A stretch of 64,000 nucleotides of DNA from Escherichia coli (lineage in GTDB: Bacteria > Pseudomonadota > Gammaproteobacteria > Enterobacterales > Enterobacteriaceae): the NCBI RefSeq assembly GCF_044324785.1, contig NZ_CP172127.1. One strand, written 5' to 3'. Below, in pieces: positions 1 through 59,254 of this stretch; within the stretch, counting starts at the first letter, position 1; every line of letters begins with the position of its first letter. The position numbers were made by a program, and so were the translations under genes. The notes under the pieces were generated by a model. It saw only the letters and a program-made list of their open reading frames with translations, was not told where the DNA came from and did no database searches.

Positions 1-81
1 GTGATTATCGCTGACAAACCATTTAGTCATTAAGGCTGGATGGTTTGTATACCACACGCAAAATAACTGCCCTACCCCAGA

Positions 82-957
82 TCAATGCTCTCCTCTGAAC
101 ACCTCTTTTCTGTGCCATTCAACAAACTGCTCGCCCGGATAATTTTCTTTAACCGGTGGCAACGCAATCGCCTTTCCCGCAAAATCCCAGAACAGTCGCT
201 GTACCACTCCACCACCATTTACCGCGCCGGAAACCACCACACGCATATTTTCATCCAAGCCAATCGAACCGCGATCAAACGCTTTATGATGGATTGCGCA
301 CAATGCCAGGCCATTAGGTACTTCACAAGGGCCATGGTGCTGCTTCCATCTGATATGAGCGGCTTCCAGAGCAATCGGCGCATTGTCGTGGCGCATGTTA
401 AAGCCGCAGATAGCGCACTGATAATTGTAAGCACGTAGCACCATCTGGCGAAACTTCGGATCGCGTTGACGGAGAGAGGTGCGAATATCAAAACCCATCT
501 CGTCAGCGATCTCTTCCTGAATACTGGCCGGGAAATGCGCCTCCAGGAGCTGCTGCGCCAGCGTATCAATTAACCTGTGATTTTTTGCCACCAACGCAAA
601 ATTATCGGCATCAAATCCACCAGCAACATTATATTCAATGAGTTCTCGTCGGGGCGGCTGGCGGCTACCACTGGTTGAGCACAGTTCCGCGTTATGTAGT
701 TCCCAGAAGCCATCGCCCTTCAGACGCCAGAACGGCATGTCCGGGCGCTGGTCACGGCGCTGCGGTCCATAACGTTCCAGGAGATCCAACAGGGGCTCGT
801 AGATTTCAGAACCATAGTTAAACAGGCGACCATGACCCTGCCGATAGTGTGAGAGAACGTACAGCAGCAATAATGGCTTATGTGGCGCACGTTGTTCGCC
901 TTTGCGCCAGATGGTGATATTTGATATCGCTTGCTTTAGGGTTTTGTCAGAGGTCAT
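82..957 (-). CDS. HNH-nuclease-domain protein (C-terminal CxxC...H...N...CxxHH motif), island cargo gene; N-terminal ~190 aa of unknown function
   Basis: ORF track 82..1002; start moved to internal ATG at 957 (291 aa). C-terminus carries YQCAICGF...AAHIRWKQHHGP...NGLALCAIHHKAFD, typical of HNH/His-Me finger nucleases. No clear Shine-Dalgarno, so start is uncertain. Confidence 0.6.
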   Translation of the reverse strand: MTSDKTLKQAISNITIWRKGEQRAPHKPLLLLYVLSHYRQGHGRLFNYGSEIYEPLLDLLERYGPQRRDQRPDMPFWRLKGDGFWELHNAELCSTSGSRQPPRRELIEYNVAGGFDADNFALVAKNHRLIDTLAQQLLEAHFPASIQEEIADEMGFDIRTSLRQRDPKFRQMVLRAYNYQCAICGFNMRHDNAPIALEAAHIRWKQHHGPCEVPNGLALCAIHHKAFDRGSIGLDENMRVVVSGAVNGGGVVQRLFWDFAGKAIALPPVKENYPGEQFVEWHRKEVFRGEH

Positions 958-1101
958 TGCGTTGGAGAATCCATGAGCACATATTTGCGATGATGCTCGC
1001 AACTATATGTACATTCAAGGCATTATTGCAGACATCCTTTTTCTCTGGCGGTTCTGTACCTGGCAGATAGAATTCTGATAACAACGGTAAAAAATACAGC
1101 G

Positions 1102-1132
1102 ACCAACCAGTCCTAAGCGGGCTGGTTGGTCT
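1102..1132. terminator. Perfect 10-bp stem hairpin (GACCAACCAG/CTGGTTGGTC) between integrase and HNH gene, T-rich on both flanks
   Basis: Seen directly; followed by TTTTAAATTT on + strand and by TATTTTTTAC on - strand. Confidence 0.45.
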
Positions 1133-1172
1133 TTTAAATTTAAACATCAGCCGAGGAATAACGGCATTCAAC

Positions 1173-2441
1173 TCACTCGCCATTACCCCGATTGATCTTC
1201 GCATAGTCAAACGGCGTAATCGCTCTCTCCCGATTCGCATCCAGAAAATCGGCCCACCACTGCAACATCAGCTTGCGCTCATCCAGATGTTCCGCTTTAT
1301 GGATATACGCCGCTCGCACCGAATTGCGCTCCATATGACTCATCTGTCGTTCCACCGCATCCTTCGACCATAACCCGGACTCAATTAACGAGCTACAGGC
1401 CATTGTGCGGAAGCCGTGGCCGCAAACTTCAACCTTAGTGTCATAACCCATCACCCGTAGCGCACTGTTCACCGTGTTTTCACTCATGGGCTTACGCGGA
1501 TCGTGATCGCCAATAAAAATCAGCTCATGCTCACCACAGAACTGCTTTATCTGCTTCAGGATCGCCAGCGCCTGCTTTGAAAGCGGCACCAGATGCGGTG
1601 TGCGCATCTTTGTTCCTCGCTGAGAATGTTTCACGCCGGGAATCGGTTCTCGCTCAGGAGGGATGGTCCACATTGATGTTTCAAAATCGATCTCTGACCA
1701 ACGAGCAAAACGCAGCTCACTGGACCGAATAAAGATAAGCAGAGTGAGTTCTGTCGCCCAGCGGGTTAGCGGCCTGCCGGTATAGCCGTCTATTTTCTCA
1801 AGCAACTCAGGGATGCGCTTTAACTCCAGCGCCGGACGATGCTGTCGATTACTGGAAGCAACCGCCCCCGCCATCTCTTGCGCCGGATTGTAATCAATTA
1901 ACCCGCTTTGCACTGCATAACGCATGATGGCCGTGGTGCGCTGTTGAAGGCGGGAAGCCACTTCAAGGCGTCCGGATTTCTCCACGGCTTTAATAGGAAT
2001 TAACAGATCGCGGGTGCCTAGTTCAGCAATATTGCGAGTACCAATTGCCGGGAAGATATTGTCCTCCAGGCTCTTTTTTACACGATTAGCATGATCTTCC
2101 GACCATTTTTGGTTGGTTACGAACCACTCTCTGGCAACCTTCTCGAAAGTAATAATCTCTTTCGCCTGCTCTTCTTTCACAGCACGCTTATGCTCACGAG
2201 GATCGATACCAGCAGCTACCAGCTTTCTGGCCTCTTCCCTTTTCTTCCGCGCATCCGCCAGTGAAACATCCGGGTAAACGCCGAACGCCATCAAATGTTG
2301 TTTACCGCCAAAACGGAAACGAAATCGCCAATACTTTGAACCGCCAGGTTTTACAAGTAAGGACATGCCGTCGCCGTCAACAAGTGAATACTCTTTCTCC
2401 TCTGGTTTCGCAGAACGAACTTTAGTATCCGTTAGGGCCAT
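1173..2441 (-). CDS. P4-family (CP4-like) tyrosine integrase
   Basis: ORF track 1173..2519 begins with GTG; start placed at ATG for MALTDTKV with GGAAGGAAG RBS (422 aa). N-terminal arm-binding motif GSKYWRFRFRFGGK, C-terminal catalytic region, and position directly beside the tRNA-Leu 3' end. Confidence 0.9.
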   Translation of the reverse strand: MALTDTKVRSAKPEEKEYSLVDGDGMSLLVKPGGSKYWRFRFRFGGKQHLMAFGVYPDVSLADARKKREEARKLVAAGIDPREHKRAVKEEQAKEIITFEKVAREWFVTNQKWSEDHANRVKKSLEDNIFPAIGTRNIAELGTRDLLIPIKAVEKSGRLEVASRLQQRTTAIMRYAVQSGLIDYNPAQEMAGAVASSNRQHRPALELKRIPELLEKIDGYTGRPLTRWATELTLLIFIRSSELRFARWSEIDFETSMWTIPPEREPIPGVKHSQRGTKMRTPHLVPLSKQALAILKQIKQFCGEHELIFIGDHDPRKPMSENTVNSALRVMGYDTKVEVCGHGFRTMACSSLIESGLWSKDAVERQMSHMERNSVRAAYIHKAEHLDERKLMLQWWADFLDANRERAITPFDYAKINRGNGE

Positions 2442-2467
2442 AGTGGTCTTCCTTCCATTGGTATCTC

Positions 2468-2519
2468 GTGAGTATACAAGCAATATCGAATCGGCAAATA
2501 TACTCATTAGTATACTCAC
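2468..2519. repeat. Inverted 10-bp repeat GTGAGTATAC / GTATACTCAC plus extra TATACTCA copy in the integrase 5' region
   Basis: Seen directly at 2468-2477 and 2510-2519, with a further TATACTCA at ~2499-2506; lies between the integrase start and leuX. Confidence 0.5.
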
Positions 2520-2603
2520 AAGCCTGTTGATGTGGGTTGAGTCAGGTTGACTTCAGTTGAGGAGAAAAGCTGGAAAAGCCTTGTGTAGCGCGGATTTCAG
2601 GCA

Positions 2604-2628
2604 TAAAAAAAGACCTCAGTTGAGGTCT
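2604..2628 (-). terminator. Rho-independent terminator downstream of leuX
   Basis: Hairpin AGACCTCA-GT-TGAGGTCT followed on the minus strand by a T7 tract. Confidence 0.75.
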
Positions 2629-2641
2629 ATTTACATACTTT

Positions 2642-2726
2642 TGGTGCCGAAGGCCGGACTCGAACCGGCACGTATTTCTACGGTTGATTTTGAATCAACT
2701 GCGTCTACCGATTTCGCCACTTCGGC
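2642..2726 (-). tRNA. leuX: tRNA-Leu (anticodon CAA)
   Basis: 85-nt sequence GCCGAAGTGGCGAAATCGGTAGACGCAGTTGATTCAAAATCAACCGTAGAAATACGTGCCGGTTCGAGTCCGGCCTTCGGCACCA on the minus strand, with encoded CCA. Confidence 0.95.
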
Positions 2727-2921
2727 ACTGAAGAGGTATGCGGAAAACGTTGTGGATTATACCTGTCGCACGCCACCATGCAAGCGCCAGCTTGCTCGCA
2801 CCTCGCTAAGTGCTGAAATTTTCAGCATTGCATACAGCGATGTGTAACCTTTGTCACACTCCAGGCACCCCGCCCTGCCATGCTCTACACTTCCCAGACA
2901 ACACCAGAGAAGGACCAAAAA

Positions 2922-18112: not shown

Positions 18113-18133
18113 TCAACACAGTGATGAAAACGA

Positions 18134-18162
18134 AGGCCGGCGCATGCGCCGGCCTTTTTTAT
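18134..18162 (+). terminator. Rho-independent terminator of valS
   Basis: GGCCGGCGC-ATG-CGCCGGCC stem followed by TTTTTTAT. Confidence 0.85.
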
Positions 18163-20058: not shown

Positions 20059-20061
20059 AAA

Positions 20062-20088
20062 ATGCCCGCGTGTTCAACTCGCGGGCAT
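20062..20088. terminator. Hairpin ATGCCCGCG...CGCGGGCAT between convergent yjgM and rraB, A6 tract upstream (T6 on minus strand)
   Basis: Seen directly. Confidence 0.65.
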
Positions 20089-20114
20089 TCGAACATTAAC
20101 AACGTACGTTTTGT

Positions 20115-21800: not shown

Positions 21801-21831
21801 GATGCCGGGAAATACAAACCATCCCGGCATC
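21801..21831. terminator. Bidirectional terminator hairpin between argI and yjgL (GATGCCGGGA...TCCCGGCATC)
   Basis: Seen directly. Confidence 0.7.
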
Positions 21832-59193: not shown

Positions 59194-59210
59194 CCCCCAG
59201 AAACATCAAC

Positions 59211-59229
59211 GGCTCCTGAATCAGGAGCC
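59211..59229. terminator. Bidirectional terminator hairpin between ytfL and ytfK
   Basis: GGCTCCTG-AAT-CAGGAGCC. Confidence 0.6.
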
Positions 59230-59254
59230 GTCTTATTACTGCATAGCACTTTGG

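Follow-up and report, generated by a model that had tools for sequence, protein, structure and literature searches.

The integrase end of the leuX island

A genomic island has inserted at the tRNA gene leuX, and the left 2.7 kb of the window (that is, the whole stretch of 64,000 nucleotides of Escherichia coli DNA that was analysed) comprise its integrase end (Table 1). The leuX-anchored defence island is hotspot #37 (PMC12707154). Its integrase is 57% identical to Int of phage P4 and is followed, after a gap of 215 bp (958-1172, between the integrase stop codon at 1175..1173 and the start codon from 957), by the gene for an HNH nuclease. leuX, the integrase gene, the gap, and the nuclease gene all lie on the minus strand, and the sequence to the right of leuX belongs to the E. 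coli core chromosome (ahr, idnK, idnD onward).

The cargo nuclease scored 445 bits on the NCBIfam model NF045808 ("phosphorothioated DNA-binding restriction endonuclease") and is 99.7% identical to the corresponding protein of E. coli W, EcoWI. The latter is a characterised Mg2+-dependent endonuclease, which cuts phosphorothioate-modified GpsAAC/GpsTTC DNA at N7/N6 (PMC7461809). The EcoWI-type gene has an internal stop in 2013C-4282, the closest complete genome, and is a pseudogene there.

Just past leuX and ahead of the integrase start, a terminator-like hairpin, AGACCTCAACTGAGGTCT followed by TTTTTTT, is found at 2611-2628 (minus strand); therefore, the integrase must have a promoter of its own, at about 2445-2610. 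At the other end, a palindrome at ~15-49 (ACAAACCAT…ATGGTTTGT, with 9-bp arms and a 17-nt loop) occupies the short gap where the nuclease gene and an upstream 5'-nucleotidase gene converge; the latter, as seen from orthologous loci, ends near window position 4, and from its sequence, the palindrome is possibly a terminator for the convergent genes. Two open reading frames that overlap or abut the hairpin treated below, one of 97 aa (947..1240, minus strand) and one of 49 aa (921..1070, plus strand), were dismissed as spurious; intergenic variants have indels of 11 nt and 22 nt there.

Table 1. Features at the integrase end of the island, in window coordinates
Feature	Position	Strand	Basis or remark
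SBD-HNH phosphorothioate-dependent restriction endonuclease, EcoWI orthologue, 291 aa	82..957	-	NCBIfam NF045808, Pfam HNH_2
Candidate -10, TATAGT	1007..1002	-	relaxed scan; poor -35
Promoter-like extended -10, TGcAATAAT	1022..1030	-	relaxed scan; poor -35
Sense tail, GCTGTATTTTTT	1089..1100	-	follows the stem immediately on the integrase strand; AAAAAA at 1089-1094 on the plus strand
Stem-loop	1101..1131	-	sequence, folds, terminator scan, covariation in 6 of 13 pairs
Antisense tail, TTTTAAATTT	1132..1141	+	directly 3' of the stem on the plus strand; A-rich on the integrase strand, where it precedes the stem
Integrase 3' untranslated spacer, stop codon to stem, 41 nt	1132..1172	-	
P4-type (arm-binding) tyrosine integrase, 422 aa	1173..2441	-	Pfam Arm-DNA-bind_3, Phage_int_M, Phage_integrase; RefSeq annotation of orthologous loci
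tRNA-Leu(CAA), leuX	2642..2726	-	integration site anchoring the island

A stable stem-loop with T-rich tails follows the integrase gene

Within the gap, GACCAACCAG (1101-1110) pairs with CTGGTTGGTC (1122-1131), which results in 10 perfect base pairs and an 11-nt loop (1111-1121). On the plus strand, T.G (G.U in RNA), C:G, and C:G extend the stem into the loop, so that 13 pairs enclose 5 nt; on the minus strand, two extra C:G pairs lie beyond a C.A mismatch. When folded as RNA, the minus (integrase sense) strand reached, with a context of 66 nt, -21.7 kcal/mol (z = -4.1; 1 of 200 shuffles was as good) and the plus strand -25.0 kcal/mol (z = -6.1; 0 of 200 shuffles). With -17.5 to -25 kcal/mol, the stem is as stable, G+C-rich, and short-looped as that of an intrinsic terminator. 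It begins 42 nt past the integrase stop codon, ahead of the next gene and so at the 3' end of a transcription unit, and lies 144 nt from the start of the EcoWI-type gene. The sequence-only reading had described a strong hairpin with a perfect 10-bp stem at 1102-1132, flanked by T-rich tracts on both strands, in a 215-bp gap between the integrase stop and the HNH start. The length of the gap is correct, the hairpin is borne out by the folds, the terminator scan, and the tails, and T-rich flanks are indeed present on either strand; the stem is real as well, only that its coordinates had been set one base too high.

When perfect hairpins with a stem of at least 10 bp and a loop of at most 12 nt were counted, the 64-kb window contained 8 distinct sites, as compared with 0.77 expected from first-order Markov simulations. 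Thus, the hairpin is a member of a truly enriched class and not a chance palindrome. The seven other sites are at 18133-18156, 20061-20089, 21801-21831, 23767-23796, 28150-28181, 59209-59231, and 60372-60402. T-runs directly follow the hairpins at 18133-18156 and 28152-28179 (an inner register of 28150-28181) on the plus strand, and these two are, from their sequence, probably ordinary terminators.

An intrinsic terminator would be expected to have its U-rich tract 0-2 nt 3' of the stem. On the integrase strand, the tail is interrupted: GCTGTA adjoins the stem and TTTTTT starts 6 nt after it, 6 T in 8 nt are reached only from offset 2, and 3 of the first 6 bases are not T. The terminator scan called the site on the plus strand only and not on the integrase strand, where the C.A mismatch extends the formal loop beyond the length that its rule allows; from offset 2, the sense tail satisfies the same T-count rule. 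As the T-run is 6 nt away from the stem and the scan call is on the opposite strand only, termination of the integrase transcript may be partial, which the interrupted U-run itself also suggests. A small RNA of the Hfq type derived from the 3'-UTR was considered and set aside, as the U-run does not adjoin the stem.

The stem is maintained by compensatory changes and with different cargo

The hairpin recurs after related integrases that are followed by other genes. In E. coli Z1323HEC0475 (locus L008), the integrase is 98% identical to that of the window and the cargo is a DUF4365/DUF1817 gene; the hairpin arms are 90% identical, the sole change being a compensatory one (C:G to T:A), whereas the flanks (15 nt on each side of the hairpin) are only 33% and 47% identical. 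In Enterobacter sp. JUb54 (L039/L040), the integrase is 83% identical, the first cargo is DptF, and the hairpin at the same place (ATCAACCAGCTTC…GAAGCTGGTTGAT) has three further compensatory pairs. The hairpin of Pantoea sp. 1.19 (L016) is a probable homologue with more compensatory pairs. DptF (3954-5633 in L039; 427 bits on TIGR03238) is a phosphorothioation-dependent restriction protein, and phosphorothioate-sensing defences in two different forms (EcoWI-type and, in L039, DptF) therefore stand first after integrases of the window family.

Covariation was assessed on only nine distinct sequences, with the limits of the hairpin chosen by hand. The hairpins were aligned alone and their register was checked by hand (alignment A4); MAFFT with the flanks included (A1) had mis-registered the diverged 3' arms. 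The pooled alignment A3 mixes both strands and was left out of counting, and L015, L018, L032, and L043 were excluded as uncertain homologues, which have only the 3' arm (…CTGGTTGG…) in common and fold differently. In the nine-sequence alignment, 6 of the 13 pairs changed on both sides and 94% of the cells were paired. On four of five measures, at most 1 of 500 column shuffles reached the observed values; the fifth, the number of further pair types, is unremarkable (reached by 161 of 500 shuffles). Sliding the register by 1 to 3 columns reduced pairing to 10-45%. Wobble and mismatch cells, counted by hand on A4, did not reveal a strand preference (2 favour the sense strand, 3 the antisense strand). 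In locus L006, which has decayed (the integrase has been lost and the HNH gene is a pseudogene), a G to A change in the stem is uncompensated.

The compensatory substitutions keep the helix, which is the behaviour of a conserved structured element. Because of these changes, and because the stem is kept with other cargo, it is under selection for pairing and travels with the integrase, not with the cargo. The notion that the hairpin separates the integrase from the downstream gene is thus supported insofar as the integrase module ends there: integrases of 98% and 83% identity are likewise followed by this stem, with different cargo beyond.

The sense tail is kept in all intact window-type loci and is absent in L008 and L039; when the tails of the homologous hairpins were inspected, no T-tract was found in these two on either strand. 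Hence, the conserved core function may be the protection or definition of an RNA 3' end and not termination, the latter coming on top in versions that have a T-run. As far as these homologues tell, it is the stem that is conserved and not a canonical terminator.

The element is single-copy and part of a mobile block

Of 5426 complete E. coli genomes, 242 contain the 215-bp intergenic region, at a median of one place each. When a covariance model was derived from seven close copies, its hits were confined to window-type copies, L008, and, as marginal matches, L039/L040; neither in the 64-kb window nor in 94 sources did it reveal a second copy of the hairpin. A dispersed palindromic repeat (REP/BIME and similar) was ruled out, the element being single-copy per genome. 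Rfam 15, searched at a permissive E-value, gave no relevant match, only a sub-threshold chance one to mir-7640 (22.7 bits vs a gathering score of 90; E 0.09).

Identity across the 215-bp region amounts to at least 99% in 44 complete E. coli genomes (100% among the matches listed), and the best match over window positions 1-2760 is only 97.5% identical. Thus, the differences must be located in the integrase and/or nuclease genes or in the leuX flank, and the region is a mosaic. From the integrase through the hairpin and the intergenic region to the EcoWI-like gene, the block hardly differs in E. coli W and many further E. coli (96-99% identity for the nuclease protein), and it is equally conserved in Mixta theicola (L017), Hafnia paralvei (L060), and Escherichia sp. 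E1V33 (L033), with 96-98% protein identity. This degree of similarity across genera indicates recent horizontal transfers of the module, and copies transferred so recently would say little about selection. Remnants away from leuX, which consist of the last 186 bp of the integrase gene, the hairpin, and a decayed nuclease gene, were observed in E. coli RM14721 (L005), C5 (L006), and SCU-176 (L007); they adjoin tia/outer-membrane-protein and phosphoethanolamine-transferase genes and IS elements.

Hairpins after other integrases of the family

Beyond the close homologues, 78 integrase relatives from other Enterobacterales were surveyed, and for each the most stable 45-nt fold was determined in the 120 nt that follow the stop codon. 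The median was -15.6 kcal/mol, as compared with -9.6 kcal/mol for dinucleotide shuffles and -12.6 kcal/mol inside coding sequence. A hairpin of -15 kcal/mol or better followed the stop codon at 43 of the 78 integrase loci, vs 5 of 78 for the shuffles and 16 of 78 inside coding sequence. Many of the hairpins are textbook terminators with T-runs (L022, L024, L055, L069, and L074). The E. coli alleles K-12 intB, pheV, asnT-HPI, and CFT073 each have a strong hairpin of their own, 5 to 45 nt after the stop codon, and strong 3' hairpins without T-runs were found for the K-12 intB type (L010), O157 (L011), L012, and L014. In phage P4 (L095, X51522, 730-815), no significant hairpin was found after int (z +1.1), and cII follows after 66 nt. 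A 3' hairpin is a trait of the island-borne relatives, neither of P4 nor universal to the family.

The interval between hairpin and cargo

Neither the promoter scan nor a relaxed scan detected a consensus or strong sigma-70 promoter for the HNH gene between the hairpin and its start; the relaxed scan returned the two promoter-like sites given in Table 1. The CAATAAT core of the extended -10 is also found in L008, despite the different cargo there, and the window and L008 remain similar for about 90 nt beyond the hairpin, up to near 1018. Because this similarity extends past the hairpin and includes the -10 core, the integrase block may carry an outward-facing promoter for whichever cargo follows. 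The weak promoter-like sites are compatible with the cargo having its own promoter; as no strong sigma-70 promoter was found, the HNH gene could also be expressed by read-through from the integrase. Within these bounds, "insulation" of the cargo by the hairpin is plausible. A second, imperfect hairpin at ~975-1012 (minus strand; GTACATATAGTTGCGAGCATCATCGCAAATATGTGC, -15.7 kcal/mol) overlaps TATAGT and the 5' leader of the nuclease gene.

The efficiency of termination determines what the hairpin would mean for the cargo: if it terminates efficiently, expression of the cargo is uncoupled from that of the integrase, and if it terminates poorly, induction of the integrase would also raise the expression of the first cargo gene.

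Function of the hairpin

With a probability of roughly 60%, we regard the hairpin as a 3'-end element of the integrase transcript, acting both as a bidirectional intrinsic terminator and as a stem that protects the 3' end. This reading builds on the observed structure and its position, the tails, the conservation by compensatory change, and the linkage to the integrase; release of the polymerase and protection of the 3' end at the stem, and how efficient either may be, we infer from the sequence. The nascent RNA, once past the integrase gene, would fold into the G+C-rich stem of 10 to 13 pairs, 42 nt beyond the stop codon, and the stem followed by GC-UGUAUUUUUU on the sense strand would bring about factor-independent termination, which is probably partial. 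The stem remaining at the 3' end would then block 3'-5' exonucleases. On the other strand, the palindrome followed by UUUUAAAUUU would stop transcription from the cargo side before it enters the integrase gene and leuX in antisense direction. The EcoWI-type cargo gene would then depend mainly on the weak promoter-like sites in the 144 nt after the hairpin.

The main alternative, which is possible although rather doubtful, is that the stem protects or defines the 3' end of an RNA whose transcription stops further downstream (by Rho or run-off decay) and which is trimmed back by exonucleases; the stability of the integrase mRNA would thereby be set and the cargo would not be insulated. In E. coli, 3' ends of Rho-dependent transcripts are commonly located at such stems. 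The compensatory conservation of the stem even in L008 and L039, which lack T-tracts, argues for this alternative, as do the strong 3' hairpins without T-runs of the other E. coli P4-type integrase alleles named above. However, both tails of the window type are T-rich and conserved in all intact copies, and a pure exonuclease block does not need them. Protection of the end and termination are not mutually exclusive.

Because compensatory change keeps the stem where neither strand has a U-tract, one may go further and assign it a primarily post-transcriptional role, in which it sets the stability of the integrase mRNA or couples integrase expression to read-through from upstream and so tunes the mobility of leuX defence islands instead of terminating transcription. 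By a loose analogy with lambda sib, such a role is conceivable, but we consider it unlikely.

It is quite improbable that the hairpin mainly terminates transcription on the plus strand, shielding the integrase gene and leuX from antisense transcription out of the cargo region, as a relic of converging cargo. The fold of the plus strand is indeed the stronger one, and this strand is the only one called by the scan. The A/T-rich TGTTTAAT 5' of the stem (in sense orientation), which constitutes the antisense T-rich tail, recurs in the diverged relatives L015, L016, L018, and L039, the antisense tail of L016 has 7 T's in 8 nt, and in many islands (for instance, those of CFT073, L009, and of L015) the cargo converges on the integrase. 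In the window, however, neither a plus-strand gene nor a consensus promoter lies upstream of the hairpin, the adjacent gene is read in the same direction as the integrase, and L008 does not have an antisense T-tract.

If the element acted as DNA, it could be the palindromic target of a dimeric regulator or recombination protein, or else a junction for cargo exchange; such a role would fit a perfect inverted repeat that lies where similarity between islands with different cargo decays. Yet, the compensatory changes at six stem positions keep the pairing and not a fixed half-site, the spacing of the arms varies (30, 31, or 34 nt in overall length), and similarity to L008 extends about 90 nt past the hairpin, which is therefore not the breakpoint; this makes such a role highly improbable. 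Identity of the hairpin with an attachment or arm site was ruled out, the arm sites of P4-type integrases being located upstream of int, by the attachment site (P4 annotation). A functionless chance palindrome, for which only the small size of the element speaks, is hardly credible in view of z-scores of -4 to -6, of the 0.77 such hairpins expected per 64 kb, and of covariation and conservation amid diverged flanks.

The element, which is real and selected, is ordinary biology of a well-known kind and matters little on its own. leuX is the most heavily occupied defence hotspot of E. coli, and the hairpin helps to draw its module map: the integrase block, its own conserved 3' hairpin, about 90 nt with a promoter-like -10, and then the interchangeable defence cargo, be it the EcoWI-type nuclease, the DptFGH type, or DUF4365/DUF1817.

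Comparison with known systems

The retroregulator of phage lambda (tI/sib) resembles the present arrangement in that a hairpin directly downstream of the integrase gene sets the fate of the 3' end of the integrase mRNA. sib is a substrate for RNase III, formed by a longer structure in the read-through transcript, and lies across attP, which means that integration separates sib from int. In contrast, the stem in the window is limited to 10 to 13 pairs; it is located on the island side of the integrase and is not parted from it by integration. A retroregulator of the sib type, which would comprise a long double-stranded RNase III substrate that integration uncouples, was rejected on these grounds.

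Closer are the bidirectional Rho-independent terminators of E. coli. Like these, the element, located just past a stop codon where a transcription unit ends, combines a short loop with a G+C-rich stem (10 to 13 pairs) that has an A-rich tract 5' and a T-rich tract 3', so that either strand looks like a hairpin with a U-run. Unlike in these, the U-run on the integrase strand of the window is parted from the stem by GCUGUA, and the homologous stems of two lineages are devoid of U-tracts.

The hairpins of other P4-type island integrases (K-12 intB at leuX, pheV/pheU, asnT-HPI, and CFT073 at leuX) differ in being unrelated in sequence, one per allele lineage, and in several cases have no T-run, and P4 has none at all. 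Still, like the hairpin in the window, they lie shortly past the integrase stop codon (by 5 to 45 nt) and are similarly stable (-16 to -29 kcal/mol), single-copy, and allele-specific.
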